This document shows, piece by piece, positions 1-6,943 of a stretch of 6,943 bases of DNA; positions within the stretch are counted from its first letter, which is position 1; each line of letters starts with the position of its first letter. Both the position numbers and the translations under genes were made by a program. Below the pieces are notes generated by a model. It saw nothing but the letters and a program-made list of their open reading frames with translations. It had not been told where the DNA came from and did no database searches. This DNA comes from an uncultured bacterium (GTDB lineage: Bacteria; SAR324; NAC60-12): positions 1 through 6,943 of the forward strand of contig CBFIGY010000059.1 of the NCBI GenBank assembly GCA_965662235.1, read 5' to 3'.

Positions 1-1257
1 CGTCTGCAGCGCCCGCACCTCCTGCAGCAGGGCCGGGTCCTGAAACTCCATCCACCCAAGCGGGTGCAGGGTCAGCAGGTGCAAAGGGGGGGCTTGGAGG
101 TTTCCGGTCAGGGCATGCCAGGCCAGGCCCATCAGCAGCAGCCGATCGCGCTCCTGCAGCGGAACATGAACCCTTTGCTCCTTCCCGGTTTCTCCCACCA
201 AAAACGCTGTATCCGGTGCCACCGGGAGGTCCAGGGCCTCCGAGTACCGGGGGGCATTCTGAAAGGACTCCGGAACCGACTCCAGCTGCTTCTGTAGGAG
301 GGCCGGTGAGCCGGCGTCCTGCAGCCAGGCCTGGAGGTAGACCTTGCGGTCAGACTGGTTTCCCAGTGCCAGCTCCTCTGGAGTCATCCACAGCAGCTGC
401 TCAGAGGGGCTGCTCTGGACCTTCCGGCAGAGCTGCTTGAAGCCCTCGGGGTGGAGCTGAATCTGGTAGCAGGAGATGTCGTAACGGGTGAGGGCGTGGT
501 TGGCCCCAGCACCTTCAATCTCCTGGTAGGGGTGCTGGAGCGAGGAAAACGGGTGGGCGGTGTAGTGCTGGGGCAGCAGTCCCAGCTCCTCCCGGAGCTC
601 CCGTTCCAGCGTCTGACGGAGGGCTTGCTGAACCGGAGCCCCTGGAGGCGCCTGCTGGAGACGGACCAGCGCAGGACGCGAGAGCTGGGAGCCTTCGGCA
701 TTGAGGTCGTGCAGGTTGAGCTTGCCGCCAATGAGGACGTAGTTGGGGCGTCCGGTCCGGTGGATGTCTTCACGGTGGTTGACAAGGAACCGTCCTTGGA
801 GGCGGATCAGGCCCCAGGCCACATGGACCTGTCGGATGGGAGGGGCCGTCTGGGGAGCAGTGGCCAGGCGCTGGGCTTCGGCACGCGCCAGCCAGTTGCG
901 CTGTCGGTCTTCTGCAAAGCCAGGTGTCCAGAAGCCTGACTCCAGCAGCGCCGGGTGGTGCTGCGAGAGGCTTTCGAGCAGGGAGCGCGCCATCAGGGAA
1001 GCTGGGAAGCTTTGAAACTTCCAGAGGGCTTCCTGGAGGGCAAAGACGTCCAGCAGTCCCAACGCTTCCCAGAGGTGCTGGAGCAGCGTTAGGGTGCCCT
1101 GAACCCGTTCCTCAGCAAGCCCGGTCTCTAGGGTCACCTGTTCCAGCAGGTGCTGCACCGGAACCTCTTCGGCAACAAAGGTTTCCTCGGAGTGGACCGG
1201 CAGGAGGGGCTTCAGGGCCGTGAGGATGAGCAGCAGTTGAGCGGTTCCATGAGTCAT
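1..1257 (-). CDS. Nudix-fold hydrolase with N-terminal helical (possibly wHTH-like) region; 3'-truncated by the window edge (>419 aa)
   Basis: Not in the ORF track because there is no stop in the window. Manual translation from ATG 1257 (GAAGGA RBS-like site just upstream) is open to base 1: MTHGTAQLLLILTALKPLLP...PIRQVHVAWGLIRLQGRFLVNHRED...NYVLIGGKLN...LRQTLERELREELGL...LLWMTPEEL... It has a Nudix-like beta strand plus LxxxR, a 'GG' at 724-729, the REUxEExGU helix RELREELGL at 577-603, and the typical downstream W-x-x-x-EEL. Confidence 0.85.
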   Translation of the reverse strand, partial: MTHGTAQLLLILTALKPLLPVHSEETFVAEEVPVQHLLEQVTLETGLAEERVQGTLTLLQHLWEALGLLDVFALQEALWKFQSFPASLMARSLLESLSQHHPALLESGFWTPGFAEDRQRNWLARAEAQRLATAPQTAPPIRQVHVAWGLIRLQGRFLVNHREDIHRTGRPNYVLIGGKLNLHDLNAEGSQLSRPALVRLQQAPPGAPVQQALRQTLERELREELGLLPQHYTAHPFSSLQHPYQEIEGAGANHALTRYDISCYQIQLHPEGFKQLCRKVQSSPSEQLLWMTPEELALGNQSDRKVYLQAWLQDAGSPALLQKQLESVPESFQNAPRYSEALDLPVAPDTAFLVGETGKEQRVHVPLQERDRLLLMGLAWHALTGNLQAPPLHLLTLHPLGWMEFQDPALLQEVRALQT

Positions 1258-1278: not shown

Positions 1279-2211
1279 TCAGCGGGGCAGGGCAATCCAG
1301 TCTCCGAGCGCTTCCTGGAGGGATTCCGGAAGCACCGGGCCGTTCAGAGGACCGGTCAGACACCACTGGTCAAAATCGGTCTTCTTCAGCTTGGGGGTGC
1401 ACCGCAGCGCCAGAGGGGTTTCTCCCGTCACCCGCCAGTGGAGCACCAGCATCGGACGGTCGGTGTCTGTCCGATTAACTCGGAGGTGTACAAGCAGGCC
1501 TTCCGGACTGAGGAGCCGAGGCCCCAGACGGATCATCTCCTCCGGACGCCGCAGCGCTAGGTGAAGGCGGTGCTGCTCGGTCCAGACGTCCACCCCAGAG
1601 TCGATCAAGGAAGCCTTCTGGACAATCCAAGAATGGAATCCCAGCTCCGGACTCCGGAAGGCGGAGGGACCAAATGAGACACCATCCCAGGCCTGCTGCA
1701 CCCACGTCGGGAGGTCCACCTGAGCCTCATATCCGTTGGGGCCAACCCACCCCTGTGCTGGAAGCGGCCGTGGCACCTGCTCAGGCGAAGGACAGCGGGC
1801 AGGGTGAAAGGCCCAGGCCTTCCGGGGTCCCGAGTGCGGACGGGCGTGGGCGAGGCGTTCCATGAAAAAGTACTTCAGGTTGCTGGTGAGGACAAGCCCC
1901 CCGCGGGCTTCTGGATTGAAGGTGCTGTTGATCCAGACCCGGGACTGCCGACAAGTCTTCGAGAAGGCGAGGCGGGTGAGCCAGACGGCCACCTGGCGGT
2001 TGGCGTCATCCAGTCGAAAGGGCTCCAGGGCGGTTCCGGTGAAGTGACAGAGCACGGATTCGACCTCAGCGATGGAGTAATGGGGGCCGCTTTGCTCCAC
2101 CCAGGCGTCCAGGGCCTCCTGAACCTGCGTCCGAACCGTGGCCTCAGGGTGATGGAGGAAGGTGTAGAAGAGCAGGGGCAGGGCTCCGGTGGTGGGAAGG
2201 ACAGCTTTCAT
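1279..2211 (-). CDS. Hypothetical protein, 310 aa
   Basis: Long ORF with protein-like composition. Its ATG (2209-2211) overlaps an upstream TGA (2208-2210, ATGA coupling), and it ends 21 nt before the Nudix ATG. No motif recognised. Confidence 0.75.
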   Translation of the reverse strand: MKAVLPTTGALPLLFYTFLHHPEATVRTQVQEALDAWVEQSGPHYSIAEVESVLCHFTGTALEPFRLDDANRQVAVWLTRLAFSKTCRQSRVWINSTFNPEARGGLVLTSNLKYFFMERLAHARPHSGPRKAWAFHPARCPSPEQVPRPLPAQGWVGPNGYEAQVDLPTWVQQAWDGVSFGPSAFRSPELGFHSWIVQKASLIDSGVDVWTEQHRLHLALRRPEEMIRLGPRLLSPEGLLVHLRVNRTDTDRPMLVLHWRVTGETPLALRCTPKLKKTDFDQWCLTGPLNGPVLPESLQEALGDWIALPR

Positions 2212-2408
2212 GATCGACTCAGAGCAAGGCGTTCAGGGTCTCCNNNNNNNNNNCGTAACCGACCACACGCCGGGCCAGCTTCCGGGCTTCCTGCATCCTG
2301 AAGCAAGGCGCTGTGCCAGTTGCTCAGTGGAAGCCGGCTGTGCCCAAAGCGGAGGTTCTTGACCTGCCACACGCCGGCTCCGTGCGGCCGGAGGATGAGG
2401 CGTTTCAT
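2208..2408 (-). CDS. Hypothetical protein coupled to the RT, interrupted by an assembly gap (true length unknown; may be the ends of one or more longer genes)
   Basis: ATG 2406-2408 overlaps the RT stop TGA 2405-2407. TGA 2208-2210 overlaps the next ATG. N-run at 2244-2253. Confidence 0.55.
   Translation of the reverse strand: MKRLILRPHGAGVWQVKNLRFGHSRLPLSNWHSALLQDAGSPEAGPACGRLXXXXGDPERLALSRS
2244..2253. other. Assembly/scaffold gap (10 N)
   Basis: Ten consecutive n bases. Confidence 0.99.
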
Positions 2409-5245
2409 GGGTGCACTCCGGCTGCTTGCAGCTGGGCCTGCAGGGCCTGAGCCTCCTGAGGTTGGGTTTGGGCGAGGAAGTGAATCAGGCCAAGCAGCGG
2501 CTGGTCCTCTAGGGGGCGTCCGTGCCAGAACACCGGACGTCCCTGAACCCGGTGGTGCACGGCCGCCCGGAGCTTGCGACGCAGGGGCTTGGCCCAGTTG
2601 GGCTTTTCATTCACCACCAGTCCGGTCACACACTGTCGCCGGCCTCGGCGGAAGAGGTTGGTCTTCTTGGGATCCAGCTCGTAACCCTGGTCCCGGAGGC
2701 GTTCTTCAACAAACGGGAGGATCTCCACCGCCCCCCTTCCAGAGGAGGAAAACGTCAGGTCGTCGGCGTAACGGGTGTACGTCACCCCGCGGCGAGTCGC
2801 CACAGTGGTCAGGGCGGCATCGGTGGACCGGAGCAGTTGGTTGGCCAGGGCGGGACTCGTGGGAGCCCCTGTAGGAAGGGCCTGCTCGTAGCTGAGCAGC
2901 GTTGCCAGCAGCCGGATGGCACGTGGACGGAACCGACCAGAGAGGCGCTGGCGGAGCAGCTTCAGAACCTGCGGGAAGCGGGTGTTGGGGAAGAAGCCCT
3001 TGATGTCCACATTGACGACAAGGGCCTGCCCACAGTGCCGGCGGGCGTTCTCGACAATGCCGATGCCGGGGCGAAATCCGGTTGCGGCGTCGTGCAGCTC
3101 CCAGGTGTTCAGCTCCTGATCCAGCACGGCTCGCTGGAAGCGCTTCAGGGTAGGGTGGGGGGCCGTAATGATCCGGGTGCCTCCGGAGCGCTTGGGAAGC
3201 GGGTAGGTCCGGTACCACCGGTTGCACTCATCTCCTTGCACCTGATCGTCTCGTCCGAGCGCAAGCTTCTGGGCCAAAGCGAGGAGGAAGGGCGCAAAGG
3301 CGAGCCCAAAGTGAACCGCCAGCTCAAGGGCCGCCAGCTGGTTGGGACCATAGTGGTCCTGCAGGGCTTCCAGGGCCTGAGGCAGGTCCGCTGGACGAAC
3401 GGCGTCCGCGAACTCTGAGCACAGCGTCCCCCGGGCGACAACCTGAGGGATCAGCTTCCACCACGGTGCCTGACGCTGATAGGGCTTCAGGAAATTTGGA
3501 GGGTCCTGCTCAAAGGCGTGCCGGAGGAGGTCCGGGTGGGCGTCAATGAATTCCAGAAGCTGCGGAGGAAGGGGCAGGTCGCTTTTGCCCCAGGCAGAAA
3601 AGGGGAAGGTCTTCAGCTCCTCCAGCACCTGCGGGTGCGTCCAGAAGTCTGGCCGGGGAAGCAGCAGCGCCCACTCGGTGACCGTCCAGTGCGTCCGGGG
3701 AAGCTGCTGCCGCCAGATCTGCAGGAGCTCCGGGGAAAGGCTCCGGAAGCGCTCTTGCCACTCGGGTGACGCCTCTCCTAGGTGCTCCCGGAGGGCAAGC
3801 AACGCCCGTCCCAGCAAGGCCTGATGCTTCGGACCTCCGCGGAGCAGGCGCTTGAGGCGCCAGGGCTCGAGCCACTCCGCCGCCGAAACCCCGGAGGGTC
3901 GCTGTTTTCGGAGGGCCGGCAGGTCCTGAGTGGTTCCTCTGAGGGTCCAGCTCAGGGCGGAAGGAGCTTGGAGCTGAGGCAGGTCCGGAAAGCGGGGGCT
4001 CCAGCGGTTCCAGTTGCGCAGGAAGGCGGCAGAGCGATACGGATCCCGCAGGGCCTTCTGGAGAACCGCCCGGGTCAGAACCTCCTTGAGCAAACCTGCA
4101 GCCTGAAGGTCCTGAAGCCACTGCTGGGACGCGCGCAGCTGCTGGGCGGTCGGCAGGGCTTGGGGCGCGGGGGCCGACCTAGAGGCCTCTCCGGCACCGA
4201 GGAGCTGTTGCTGAAGGTGCTTACGGACGCTGGACAGGAGCGCGTTGGGGGCCGGCGGTGACGGACGCTGGAACAGCAACTGACGCTTCAGGGACCCGGA
4301 GGTGCCAAGGATCAGGAGGCTCCAGACGACGGGCTCATGCCGCCAAGGTTCCAGGAGCAAGCGTACCTCTGGGCTGATGTTCAAGGAGAGGAGGGACCTG
4401 CTGGATACCCCCTCCAGGAAGGTGCGGAGGACCGGCAGGTGGGCCTGGAAGTCGCTGCGGTAACGGAGCCAGAAGCGCCAGGGACCCGCCTGGAGCTGCC
4501 GCTCCTGCAGGTCCTCAAAAACCTGGTCCCGGTGCTGCTTCAGCAGGTGCCACTCCGGAGTCTCTGGAAAGGTGTGAGGGGCCCCCTCCACGGCACAGAG
4601 GAAGGAGGTTTCCAGCAGATGCTGGCGGTACTCCTTGCGCAGCACCTGACGCTGCAGAGGTCGCTTGAGCTGCCGGAACAGGGTTCTGGAGAGGGTTCCC
4701 CGGACCCCTCCGTTCTGTTTCAGCAGGACCAGTTCGTCAAGGAGGTCCTGGGGATGGAGGTCGAGGTGCCGGAGGGGAAGAAGGAGCTGCCGCAGGGTGC
4801 GGCGTCGTGGAGGAAGTCCCTGGAGCAGGGCCTGAAGTGGAACGCCCTTGTGGCTCAGGCGGGCCTGACACAGCACCTCCCATTCAGGCACGTTGGGCGC
4901 CAGTGCTAGGTCCCGGTACAGCGCCCAGGCCCCTTGGGGCTCGGGCAGTTGCGCCACGGCCGCGGCCTGCACGGTTCCCAACGAGGGAAGCCCCTGGGCC
5001 AGTTCCCATTCCAAAAAGACCCGCCACCCCATCAGGTCCTCCGCGTGCAGCACCTCCTCCCGAAGGGCATCTGCCAGAGGCGGGGCTTCGGGGGCTCCGG
5101 TGAGCTCGGCCTGGAGGCGCTTCCGGAACTGCTGCAACGGGTGCTGCACCTGCTGGTGCGCCTGTCGCCAAACGTCCGGTTGGTCCAGAGGAAGGGTGCA
5201 GAGGAGGCGGAGGACGTGGTCCAGTCCGTTGAGGCTGAGTTCCAT
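2405..5245 (-). CDS. Retron-type reverse transcriptase with ~675-aa N-terminal extension (~946 aa)
   Basis: C-terminal ~270 aa (about 2405-3220) contain YRTYPLPKRSGGTRIITAP, HDAATGF, retron region-X NARRH (3035-3049), DIKGFFP, LPTGAPTSPALAN (LPTG 2867-2878), YTRYADDLTFS (YADD 2759-2770) and region-Y VTGLVVN (VTG 2621-2629). Start placed at ATG 5245, preceded by AGGAG, rather than the track's TTG 5287, which lies inside the ncRNA inverted repeat. Confidence 0.95.
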   Translation of the reverse strand: MELSLNGLDHVLRLLCTLPLDQPDVWRQAHQQVQHPLQQFRKRLQAELTGAPEAPPLADALREEVLHAEDLMGWRVFLEWELAQGLPSLGTVQAAAVAQLPEPQGAWALYRDLALAPNVPEWEVLCQARLSHKGVPLQALLQGLPPRRRTLRQLLLPLRHLDLHPQDLLDELVLLKQNGGVRGTLSRTLFRQLKRPLQRQVLRKEYRQHLLETSFLCAVEGAPHTFPETPEWHLLKQHRDQVFEDLQERQLQAGPWRFWLRYRSDFQAHLPVLRTFLEGVSSRSLLSLNISPEVRLLLEPWRHEPVVWSLLILGTSGSLKRQLLFQRPSPPAPNALLSSVRKHLQQQLLGAGEASRSAPAPQALPTAQQLRASQQWLQDLQAAGLLKEVLTRAVLQKALRDPYRSAAFLRNWNRWSPRFPDLPQLQAPSALSWTLRGTTQDLPALRKQRPSGVSAAEWLEPWRLKRLLRGGPKHQALLGRALLALREHLGEASPEWQERFRSLSPELLQIWRQQLPRTHWTVTEWALLLPRPDFWTHPQVLEELKTFPFSAWGKSDLPLPPQLLEFIDAHPDLLRHAFEQDPPNFLKPYQRQAPWWKLIPQVVARGTLCSEFADAVRPADLPQALEALQDHYGPNQLAALELAVHFGLAFAPFLLALAQKLALGRDDQVQGDECNRWYRTYPLPKRSGGTRIITAPHPTLKRFQRAVLDQELNTWELHDAATGFRPGIGIVENARRHCGQALVVNVDIKGFFPNTRFPQVLKLLRQRLSGRFRPRAIRLLATLLSYEQALPTGAPTSPALANQLLRSTDAALTTVATRRGVTYTRYADDLTFSSSGRGAVEILPFVEERLRDQGYELDPKKTNLFRRGRRQCVTGLVVNEKPNWAKPLRRKLRAAVHHRVQGRPVFWHGRPLEDQPLLGLIHFLAQTQPQEAQALQAQLQAAGVHP

Positions 5246-5249
5246 GGGG

Positions 5250-5254
5250 CTCCT
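5250..5254 (-). promoter_or_regulatory. Probable ribosome-binding site for the RT
   Basis: Minus strand reads CAC-AGGAG-CCCC-ATG. Spacing is short (4 nt) but plausible. Confidence 0.55.
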
Positions 5255-5281
5255 GTGAGGGGGGACCAGGAAAGCAGGGAG

Positions 5282-5473
5282 CAGCAACCGGATTACTGAA
5301 AAGCCGAACCTCAGTCGACACGACGCTAGAAAGTGAGCGTCGCGAACCCGAAGGAGGGAGCTCGCGCGTGGATTCGGGTAGAGCGAAGCTCACTTTCTCA
5401 AGGAGGGGAGGCCCCTGAGTCCATGATGTCACCCCTCCGGCGAAACGCCGGATCGATCCTAATCCGGTTGCTG
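5282..5473 (-). ncRNA. Putative retron msr-msd non-coding RNA
   Basis: Perfect 14-bp inverted repeat CAGCAACCGGATTA (5282-5295) / TAATCCGGTTGCTG (5460-5473) brackets the region. On the minus strand the 5' arm ends ...GATTA-G (G = 5459), opposite another G (5296). msr-like hairpin TCCGGCG-TTT-CGCCGGA (5436-5452) and GGAGGGG/CCCCTCC stem (5402-5408/5432-5438). Long msd-like hairpin at 5328-5398. Lies directly upstream of a retron RT. Confidence 0.85.
5282..5473. repeat. a1/a2-type 14-bp perfect inverted repeat (arms 5282-5295 and 5460-5473)
   Basis: cagcaaccggatta is the exact reverse complement of taatccggttgctg. Confidence 0.95.
5328..5398 (+). other. Predicted msDNA long hairpin (msd)
   Basis: AGAAAGTGAGC (5328-5338) pairs with GCTCACTTTCT (5388-5398); TCGC (5340-5343) with GCGA (5383-5386); ACCCGAA (5346-5352) with TTCGGGT (5373-5379). 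The plus strand is the cDNA sense for a minus-strand transcript. Confidence 0.75.
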
Positions 5474-5475
5474 TA

Positions 5476-5636
5476 AACCCCGAAGGGTCATGCAGTGAAA
5501 TCGGTGTGGCTGCACAGAAGCCCGGAACGGCCCCTTTGCGGGGCCTCAGGTGTTCCGGCCTCTGTTCTGCCTGATGCTGACCCTCAGTTTACGCCCTCCT
5601 CATGAAGACGGGAGGGGGCTGAGGGGAGCAACCAGG
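5476..5636 (-). ncRNA. Additional structured RNA domain (four tandem hairpins) 5' of the msr-msd
   Basis: Hairpins: ACCC-UUCG-GGGU (5477-5488, cUUCGg loop on the minus strand); TGCAG/CTGCA (5491-5514); CCGGAAC/GTTCCGG plus GGCCCC-GCAAA-GGGGCC (5522-5558); CCCTCAG/CTGAGGG plus CCCTCC/GGAGGG with outer TGCT/AGCA and CCTG/CAGG (5570-5636). Confidence 0.55.
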
Positions 5637-5654
5637 TATCCGTCCTGCCAACGC

Positions 5655-6943
5655 TCACTCCAGCGTGAGGGAGAGGGTCAGCTCCACCTGCCGGAGGGCG
5701 CGGTAGAGGCTGACGCTGTCGTCTTGAGGAAGCGCCGTGTCAACATCGCTGAACAGCTGGGAGGCAAGGTCACTGGAGGAGACGGTGAGGCTGGTGTTGT
5801 CGGTGCTGGCGTTGTCAAACGACCAGGTCAGGGTTCCGGTGGCTGAGCCACCCCGGATCACCCCATCCATCAAGTAGTCGGCTGGTGCACTGGCAGCGTA
5901 GGCAAGGAGCAGGCGCTGGTAGCTGAGGTTGACATCGTGTGACACCTGATGGGTGAAGGTCTCCGTCTGGTTGTCGAGGGTGACCTGGGTAACCACTTCC
6001 ACAGTGGAGGCGGTGGCGGTGGGGTCGATCACAATCCCACTGAAGTAGTCACCGGTCAGGGCGCCCAAGGAGCCGGAGATCGCCTGAGGCAGCTTCTGGG
6101 CATTGGGAGAGGCGTCAATCATTGACACCATGGTTGCCGGGATCACCGGCTTCTTCAGCTGTCCTCCGGACTGGGTGAAGGCGTGCGCAAAGGCCAGCCA
6201 GAGGCCTCCTGATGAGTAGCTCAGGGTGCCATAGGCGCCCAGTCGCCCCAGGTCACCTGACAGGTCGAGCACCGCCACCGTGTTGCCCGGTTGCAGCAGC
6301 GGCTGCAGCACCGCGTTGGGGTTCCGTTCAGAAGACGGGCGCCGTGGGGGAAGGAGGGCGGCGAGGGTCCGGTAGGGCAAGGCGCGTTCCTGAGCGGCAA
6401 GCGTGCTCAGCGTCTCCCGCAGCGTCATGGAAGACCCGGCCATGCCCAGTGGCTGGAAGCCTGCTCCTGCAGCCGAGGTCCTCTCCTGACGGAGGCTCTG
6501 GCGGGCGGCCTGAGGCCTCTGGGGCAGGGTCAGCAGGTCTTCAATGGCCCGTGCAGCAAAGAAGTGCTTGTTGTCCGCCCATCCGTAACACAGGGCGGCC
6601 ACCACCCGACCCTCGGCATCCAGCACCGGAGAACCGCTGTCGCCGGCTCCAATGATGAGGTCCTCTGCTGTGGAGAGCAGCACCAGGCGTTCGCCAGAAT
6701 CATAGACGGAGTCAAAGGCGACGGTGTACTCGTCCACCTGCGTCCCCCTTCGGTTCAACCGGAGACGCAGTTCGGTGCCGGGCTCCAGACCGGAGAGGGT
6801 GGAAAATGAAGCATACCCTTCGGAGGGCGCCGCCACGTCTTCCTGAACCAGAGACGATGACGGGCTGCTCAAGCTGGAGGTGCTGTCGTTGGAACAGGCA
6901 GGAAGGAGGAGCAGCAAGAAGGCTCCAAGAGCCTGTAGGATAC
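5655..6943 (-). CDS. Lipoprotein, SpoIVB-like (peptidase S55-type) serine protease domain; 5'-truncated
   Basis: The frame is open to the right edge (..ILQALGAFLLLLLPA-C-SNDSTSS), giving a hydrophobic signal, a lipobox Cys at 6894-6896 and a Ser-rich linker. Motifs IIGAGDSGSPV..GRVVAALCYGW (GDSGSP 6627-6644), LQPGNTVAV..GDL..LGAYGTLSY and LAFAHAF (His 6183-6185) resemble the GMSGSPV / GTVTY / LAFGHPF pattern of SpoIVB-S55 domain proteins. Confidence 0.75.
   Translation of the reverse strand, partial: ILQALGAFLLLLLPACSNDSTSSLSSPSSSLVQEDVAAPSEGYASFSTLSGLEPGTELRLRLNRRGTQVDEYTVAFDSVYDSGERLVLLSTAEDLIIGAGDSGSPVLDAEGRVVAALCYGWADNKHFFAARAIEDLLTLPQRPQAARQSLRQERTSAAGAGFQPLGMAGSSMTLRETLSTLAAQERALPYRTLAALLPPRRPSSERNPNAVLQPLLQPGNTVAVLDLSGDLGRLGAYGTLSYSSGGLWLAFAHAFTQSGGQLKKPVIPATMVSMIDASPNAQKLPQAISGSLGALTGDYFSGIVIDPTATASTVEVVTQVTLDNQTETFTHQVSHDVNLSYQRLLLAYAASAPADYLMDGVIRGGSATGTLTWSFDNASTDNTSLTVSSSDLASQLFSDVDTALPQDDSVSLYRALRQVELTLSLTLE

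Follow-up and report, generated by a model that had tools for sequence, protein, structure and literature searches.

In the known single-gene retron fusions, the second domain is attached C-terminally to the reverse transcriptase (RT). The 13 retron types distinguished by Mestre et al. (2020, PMC7736814) and the PADLOC models derived from them include, as far as the article text goes, no N-terminal helical fusion and no MoxR/VWA-peptidase partner. Type XIII comprises RTs of clade 10 with a SWIM/winged-helix protein and a HEAT/ARM-like accessory, and according to the main text these RTs co-evolve with the HEAT/ARM-like protein, which is encoded separately (PMC7736814). Outside the retrons, MoxR-vWA NTP-dependent conflict systems pair a MoxR AAA+ protein with a vWA protein that has a metal ion-dependent adhesion site (MIDAS), near peptidase domains, and the sections consulted also tie them to an RT, that of a diversity-generating retroelement (DGR), which mutagenises an effector (Kaur, Burroughs, Iyer and Aravind, 2020, PMC7159879). 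Here we describe an RT gene on a 6943-bp contig of an uncultured SAR324 bacterium (CBFIGY010000059.1; G000:C59 in our numbering), which was analysed over its whole length and is called the window. Its five sizeable genes all lie on the minus strand. The RT carries a large all-alpha domain at its N-terminus, and we consider it somewhat more probable than its converse that the protein is the RT of a large, apparently unclassified retron family and that this domain is a genuine, family-defining, non-enzymatic and alpha-solenoid-like adaptor fused to the RT.

The open reading frame (ORF) of the RT gene (2405..5287, minus strand; stop codon at 2405-2407) encodes 960 aa when read from a TTG. The true start is likely the ATG at 5245, which gives a protein of 946 aa; this start is favoured because AGGAG lies 4 nt upstream of it, the TTG falls inside a repeat (a2) of a non-coding RNA (ncRNA) and the database copy of the protein (P0003) also has 946 aa. 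The N-terminal domain (676 aa) is encoded at 3218..5245 and the retron-type RT domain at 2405..3217, both on the minus strand. YADD, the NAxxH-like ENARRH and VTG were read from the translation, and we take these to be the motifs known by those names in retron RTs. In Pfam, RVT_1 matches residues 698-880 of the 960-aa form (E 2.8e-20). Sixty PADLOC retron RT models match, RT_XIII best with 235 bits and RT_X next with 211, and the NCBIfam model retron_St85_RT gives 201.5 bits, under its cut-off of 235. Foldseek aligned the RT model to the RT chains of retrons Eco2, Ec86 and Eco7 (E 1e-14 to 1e-12), the closest structures being 9lm3_A (Eco2, 7.5e-15) and 7v9x_A (Ec86, 1.0e-14). PADLOC, Foldseek and the motif reading together identify a retron-lineage RT whose catalytic YxDD box is intact. 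The sequence-only reading of this DNA had pointed to a long in-frame extension ahead of a retron RT core, and ORF, Pfam and homologues bear this out.

Directly ahead of the RT gene lies an msr-msd ncRNA gene (5282..5473, minus strand), recognised by inverted repeats, fold energy and covariation. It is closed by a perfect 14-nt inverted repeat, a1 (5460-5473) and a2 (5282-5295), with 164 nt between the arms and a conserved G after a1 (5459/5458) and before a2 (5296). It contains an msr hairpin (about 5436-5452) and an msd stem of 16 nt (arms 5383-5398 and 5328-5343), and the 206-nt stretch folds with -94.5 kcal/mol (z -5.16 versus shuffles). A structured ncRNA closed by a1/a2 with flanking G next to an RT is what marks a retron. 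At related loci the a1/a2 repeats have other sequences but the same geometry and end near the RT start. Perfect repeats of at least 9 nt at a spacing of 150-215 nt are present in 33/53 upstream regions versus 10/53 and 2/53 in coding controls, and those of at least 11 nt at the same spacing in 24/53 versus 0/53 and 1/53. For the covariation test 29 upstream regions were aligned, chosen for having repeats; 31 qualified, and L094 and L135 were left out as near-duplicates of L092 and L134. Selection by the repeats does not bias the test of the hairpin. The alignment has (T)AG after a1, the hairpin CCGGYG-TTTC-GCCGG, and AGTAA before a2. The msr hairpin pairs in 174/174 cells, with changes on both sides in 5/6 pairs, and its covariation score was reached by 0/500 shuffles; hairpin positions slid as controls pair in 26-52% of cells. 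No retron msr family of Rfam matched at E<=1, and a sigma-70 promoter scan of 5200-5700 found nothing. On these sequence features we assign the locus to the retrons, with a canonical msr-msd gene directly ahead of the RT gene. This gene and the conserved operon described below had been missed by the sequence-only reading, and they turn an odd fusion into a whole retron family.

Of the described types, type XIII resembles the family most. Both have RT_XIII as top PADLOC RT model, an N-terminal extension of the RT, an msr-msd gene directly ahead of the RT and an all-helical partner coupled to the RT. The final ~55 aa of the domain are common to the N-terminal extensions of other retron RTs, and in the window they align to some type XIII extensions. 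Unlike in type XIII, the extension measures 570-894 aa, versus ~175 aa in confirmed type XIII loci, and the RTs reach roughly one third of the RT_XIII score that true members attain. On RT_XIII, three confirmed type XIII RTs scored 620-675 bits, which left the runner-up model (322-341 bits) about 290-330 bits behind, whereas five other RTs of the family scored 229-253 bits with the next model 3-24 bits behind. The window RT, with 235 bits, falls outside type XIII (RT_XIII, clade 10) by this measure. The type XIII loci compared here encode WGR/HEAT-ARM_XIII (~1030 aa) and SWIM_XIII (~548 aa) ahead of an RT of ~510 aa. Neither SWIM_XIII nor HEAT-ARM_XIII was found among the four neighbours in the window or among 12 neighbours in L002, L006, L008 and L009; the partners here are a methyltransferase, c1, MoxR and DUF2201. 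The same scan detected SWIM_XIII (E 1e-229 or better) in 6/7 comparison loci with a short N-terminal RT extension, and the seventh (L012) had two proteins that no model matched. In a FastTree phylogeny of 151 RT domains, 86/86 family tips and L015, which has a 454-aa extension, form one clade (stem 0.40, support 0.70).

The domain could nevertheless be a strongly diverged, fused copy of the HEAT/ARM-like accessory of type XIII, which would make the system a derived type XIII. RT_XIII is the top model, type XIII RTs co-evolve with a separate protein of this kind, as stated in the main text of PMC7736814, and a weakly HEAT/ARM-like geometry is seen in the C-terminal block of the domain. Against this, the domain alignment and ten confirmed type XIII WGR/HEAT-ARM proteins gave an hhalign probability of 0.2%, the family RTs fall far short of type XIII RTs in both score and margin, and the type XIII partners are missing among the neighbours scanned. 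The domain also had no PADLOC match to HEAT-ARM_XIII or WGR_XIII at E<=10. We regard a derived type XIII as improbable and, on RT phylogeny and model scores, treat the family as a retron lineage of its own, closest to type XIII and failing its defining features.

The RT-Toprim (I-C, Retron-Eco2/Ec67), RT-protease (XI) and RT-TIR (XII) retrons likewise fuse the RT to a second large domain, and the fold of the family RT is closest to the Eco2, Ec86 and Eco7 RT structures. In those proteins the fused part is a recognisable enzyme at the C-terminus; here the fused domain is N-terminal, looks non-enzymatic and is accompanied by further genes. A literature search of article texts, with supplementary tables outside its scope, found no retron described with such an N-terminal domain or with MoxR/DUF2201 partners. 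The main texts of PMC7736814 and PMC13712802 contain no mention of such an extension, or of a methyltransferase, AAA, MoxR or DUF2201, and their supplements could list such RTs as unclassified.

The fusion is widely kept. Among proteins of 520-1656 aa, a search anchored on the RT yielded 769 relatives (E<=1e-3), and in the best 120 of these 769 the RT identity is 47-81%. The RT stands at the C-terminal end in 121/121 proteins analysed, while the more distant P0123 has 254 aa more behind it; 99 of the other relatives listed have 850-1060 aa. At the DNA level 92 loci were studied (the window, nine genome contigs, two sister genomes and 80 metagenomes), and in 65 of them the RT ORF was uncut at the 5' end. 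Between 570 and 894 aa precede the RT in 61/65 of these 5'-intact loci, the exceptions being L102, L107, L126 and L168. A fusion made up of two genes joined by a sequencing or assembly error might be suspected from the short contig (6943 bp) and from a gap of 10 N elsewhere in it (2245-2254). The same frame occurs in many unrelated assemblies, and in two genomes of the same genus it is continuous and open for 990 and 948 aa without stops. The homologues thereby refute such an artefact, whose probability we put close to nil.

Close RT homologues of only 148-473 aa were mostly found on contigs below 3 kb. Of 14 inspected on longer contigs, six have pieces of 57-208 aa of the domain end, and four start inside the RT. 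The distantly related locus L089 (G023:C121), from the same bacterial family, has a 923-aa RT ORF (5324-8095) in which the RT lies mid-protein (start ~568) and is followed by a C-terminal extension. The match of its N-terminal part to the window domain is confined to residues 454-536 and 586-675 of the latter, and the downstream genes differ.

The sequence-only reading had found no recognisable motif in the domain and had called it largely alpha-helical, and both descriptions hold. Pfam gave no match ahead of RVT_1, PADLOC none at E<=10, NCBIfam only noise and PHROGs none, so that no known retron-fusion domain was matched in these collections. No Pfam repeat family was detected at E<=0.1, and ESM Atlas had no usable match. 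A profile search of the PDB returned designed helical repeat proteins only (E 0.0035-0.011). AlphaFold2 was run with 100 full-length relatives (predicted local distance difference test, pLDDT, 87.5; predicted template modelling score, pTM, 0.63) and with 59 N-terminal parts (pLDDT 87.8, pTM 0.64). The latter model has 47 helices and no strand of three or more residues, with confident blocks at about 1-350, 365-425 and 455-660 and low-confidence linkers near 351-366 and 420-453. Foldseek matched only the RT of the full-length model. With the domain it gave no match at E<=1e-3 in the PDB (best 1.1e-2, TM-score at most 0.19, generic solenoids) or in BFVD, an outcome that, going by the calibration of the aligner, is uninformative for helical repeats.

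The N-terminal parts diverge much faster than the RT. A phmmer search with the 676 aa against 1.84 billion representatives retrieved five proteins only, and the best match (P0004, 945 aa) has 48% identity over residues 16-676 versus 81% in its RT. When the N-terminal part was used as query in a word-index search of proteins of 528-1680 aa, the sole match was the protein of the window itself; the fast divergence of the domain makes such a search miss relatives. With a hidden Markov model iterated solely on N-terminal parts, coverage rose from 13 to 119/121 proteins; the N-terminal parts are therefore homologous, though fast-evolving. The mean frequency of the top residue is 0.13-0.32 in the N-terminal part versus 0.5-0.75 in the RT. 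Conservation in the N-terminal part falls mainly on L, P, A and W, besides E641 (96%) and G671, and there is a conserved R-N-L-x-A motif, which reads R-E-E in the window copy. Column conservation revealed no conserved catalytic-type or polar residues in the domain. Its net charge is positive in 98/110 relatives (median +22; +9 in the window copy). Judged by these alignments, the domain is conserved in architecture and evolves several times faster than the RT.

These data bear on what the domain does. Two options had been offered by the sequence-only reading, a helical-repeat sensor or scaffold and a novel fused effector. The former fits the all-alpha, solenoid-like model, the fast evolution, the lack of conserved polar residues and the weak in-silico indication that the domain binds c1 (see below). 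The latter is not supported, as no catalytic-looking residue is conserved and plausible effectors are encoded by separate, co-occurring genes. Single-gene retrons do fuse effectors to the RT, as the PADLOC names RT-Toprim_I-C, RT-Protease_XI and RT-TIR_XII indicate, and the function of the domain is not known, so it could itself be a toxic effector restrained by multicopy single-stranded DNA (msDNA). The known fusions are C-terminal, however, the enzymatic candidates here are separately encoded and co-occur, the alignment shows no conserved polar or catalytic residues, and no transmembrane segment was noticed in the translation or the model; a toxic domain therefore seems very improbable to us.

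Fast evolution also suggests that the domain might mainly be a receptor for phage proteins, and thus a trigger sensor and not a passive scaffold; a phage factor on the solenoid surface would then release or activate the downstream module. The domain retains 48% identity to its nearest relative where the RT retains 81%, the mean column identity is 13% in an alignment of N-terminal parts (A3, built on the DNA references of 58 loci), and the distribution is patchy (5/61 genomes, strong only in the same genus). Fast divergence combined with patchiness is typical of arms-race components. The trigger is not known, however, and a weakly constrained scaffold would diverge alike. We consider the receptor role rather unlikely as the principal function, and it overlaps with the adaptor reading instead of excluding it.

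In most relatives the RT gene stands first in an operon, whose downstream genes were clustered over the loci and counted, among 88 unique loci, in those with enough downstream DNA. A methyltransferase of ~258 aa (N6_N4 DNA methylase) occurs downstream in 50/69, c1 (~310 aa), a family without known relative, in 39/56, a MoxR protein of ~327 aa (AAA_5; phrog_1297) in 40/46, and a DUF2201 protein of ~400 aa (DUF2201_N plus VWA-like DUF2201; phrog_1314) in 31/37, or in 33/37 when counted anywhere in the locus. Pfam E-values were 1e-9 to 4e-11 for AAA_5, 4e-25 to 1e-38 for DUF2201_N and 1e-18 to 2e-25 for DUF2201. The DUF2201 proteins have HExxH in 29/30 and the MIDAS motif DTSGS in 30/30 cases. 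In the pair, the AAA_5 ATPase comes first, and the second protein combines DUF2201_N (HExxH) with a VWA-like DUF2201 that has MIDAS. The MoxR AAA+ protein and the VWA/HExxH zinc-peptidase protein are plausible separate effectors, as is a Nudix-like protein in this genus.

The pair connects the family to systems outside the retrons. Like the MoxR-vWA conflict systems, it combines MoxR with a vWA protein with MIDAS, and a caspase-domain gene lies between pair and retron in a sister genome. The RT of those systems is a DGR RT, whereas here it is a retron RT with msr-msd, and the vWA partner is a DUF2201 protein with an N-terminal HExxH domain. The two proteins also resemble a phage AAA+/DUF2201 pair over their full length, with E 2e-80 to 3e-85 for MoxR against phrog_1297 and E 1e-68 to 6e-81 for DUF2201 against phrog_1314. 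Unlike the phage pair, they are chromosomal here and coupled to a retron. A scan of viral contigs gave four weak RT-only matches (26-33% identity). With viral contigs nearly devoid of the family, a phage origin of the family was dropped.

The c1 protein is the family-specific candidate for a partner of the domain. Among 28 members there was no Pfam match except one at E 0.054, no sequence relative in the PDB and no PADLOC or PHROG match, and ESM Atlas scores were <=0.82; c9 is a diverged c1 (hhalign 98.9%). Prediction of the complex of domain and c1 gave an interface score from aligned errors (ipSAE) of 0.55 (runs 0.55, 0.54 and 0.57), versus 0.00 for the best of three controls. The runs agree in at least 73% of contacts, with a partner pLDDT of at least 83. 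In the calibration of ipSAE, the mark was reached by 116/157 solved complexes and 2/215 mismatches, and scores of <=0.60 were seen for 18/157 solved complexes and both passing mismatches; these counts hold roughly, since custom alignments were used for the prediction. The models point weakly to binding of c1 by the domain. In L006-L009, L144, L146 and L158, which are mostly betaproteobacterial, there is no methyltransferase, and a protein called c5 or c11 is encoded between RT and MoxR. The two are related to each other (hhalign 97%) and have no Pfam or PADLOC match.

In the mechanism that we favour, the RT would make msDNA from the upstream RNA. The helical domain would serve as a built-in adaptor that holds msDNA, c1 or both, and that makes the MoxR/VWA-peptidase module responsive to the state of the RT-msDNA complex. 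This module would execute when a phage disturbs the RT-msDNA complex. By analogy, the role of the domain may be comparable to that of the separate HEAT/ARM-like accessory of type XIII retrons. The finding probably widens into a new retron type. Taken to its full extent, it would make the window the type member of a retron class not described before, widely distributed among bacteria of water and soil, whose RT gained a domain of 600-900 aa without detectable structural relative; this domain would dock msDNA and the family-specific partner, the MoxR AAA+ motor and the VWA/zinc-peptidase protein would execute, and the methyltransferase that is often present would perhaps mark msDNA or the genome as 'self'. 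That full picture has, in our estimate, a little less than an even chance of being right.

Several observations weigh against these readings. Firstly, the partners are not constant. The methyltransferase was not found in about a quarter of the loci, and c1 not in 17/56. Some of the loci without c1 have the unrelated c5/c11 (~350 aa) in its place (hhalign versus c1 1.7% and 0.1%), and c1 is therefore not a universal partner. The ipSAE of 0.55 for the domain and c1 falls in a score range in which predictions fail more often than they hold, except where the interaction was likely from the outset. Secondly, the MoxR/DUF2201 pair stands apart from the retron in this genus. In the sister genome G001 it is encoded on the opposite strand ~6 kb upstream, with five genes in between, among them the caspase-domain gene, and in the genome of the window (G000) the orthologous pair is on another contig of 3.3 kb (C69). 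With the pair outside the operon, the functional link is weaker for the window itself. Thirdly, residues 1-420 of the domain are barely covered in the lists of the structure aligners, and a known fold is possible there. Four of the 14 short homologues on longer contigs (P0164, P0177, P0166 and P0191) begin at or before the RT without a match to the domain, and they may be split, decayed or genuine short forms. Lastly, msDNA production, binding and defence are predictions.

If the full picture is true, a retron would here be coupled for the first time to an AAA+-driven protease, and retrons would be linked to the MoxR-vWA conflict systems. Retrons are classified by their effector modules, and a family with hundreds of metagenomic members would escape that scheme. 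An AAA+ motor with a zinc peptidase and an optional methyltransferase would add an effector logic to retron biology, and the almost unstudied DUF2201/MoxR pair would be given a testable function. Structural biology would gain a large new domain attached to an RT, and retron engineering would gain further compact msr-msd scaffolds whose covariation is clear.

The distribution of the family is patchy on the genome scale and broad on the taxonomic one. Among 61 related genomes, matches occurred in five including that of the window; apart from the latter, strong matches were confined to two genomes, both of the same genus. Of the remaining two, one is a distant relative and the other (G020) has a weak match (E 6.7e-4) with an internal stop. 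Named relatives belong to the Verrucomicrobiota and the Alpha-, Beta- and Gammaproteobacteria.

The genus has its own variant of the operon, and the sister genome G001 has the same gene order as the window. The methyltransferase is represented in the window by a 66-aa ORF (2208..2408, minus strand) that includes the 10 N at 2245-2254. Aligned to the methyltransferase of L088 (258 aa), the ORF covers no more than residues ~68-107 and is without the stretches that hold SPPY and DPFAGGG there. Going by this alignment, the methyltransferase is decayed in this genome. The 10 N may be a scaffold gap, so that some of the loss could stem from the assembly; the gap does not extend to the N-terminal part that is missing. 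Just downstream of the RT gene and this remnant lies c1 (1279..2211, minus strand, 310 aa), which is followed by the Nudix-like gene c6 (1..1257, minus strand). The contig ends within the latter, of which 419 of roughly 550 aa are present. It matches NUDIX with E 9e-4, below the Pfam cut-off, while its stretch RELREELGL fits what we take to be the Nudix box, REUxEExGU. It follows c1 only in this genus, and L087 and L088 have full-length homologues (552 and 546 aa) at the corresponding place. In this sub-lineage it may serve as an additional or substitute effector. A Nudix-like gene also adjoins a divergently oriented MoxR/DUF2201 pair in the metagenome locus L094. On contig C69 of the window's genome (L170), the MoxR gene (494-1477) is followed by a gene (1474-2661) for a 395-aa protein with DUF2201_N (E 3.8e-25), VWA-like DUF2201 (E 1.4e-18) and the motifs HELLH and DTSGS; these two genes are orthologous to the pair that lies near the retron in the sister genome.

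Inside the RT gene, on the other strand, an Rfam match to the L31-Firmicutes leader (3937-3966, plus strand; 29.2 bits versus a gathering threshold of 33.3) is most likely due to chance. The upstream neighbour of the retron (5655-6917, minus strand) encodes a protein of 420 aa with a lipoprotein-like N-terminus (LLLLLPACS) and the serine-protease motif GDSGSP, which matches Trypsin_2 and Peptidase_S3 below threshold only. It is not kept in the other loci of the retron family, and a homologue stands at the same place in the sister genome G001, where it is preceded by the caspase-domain (Peptidase_C14) gene.

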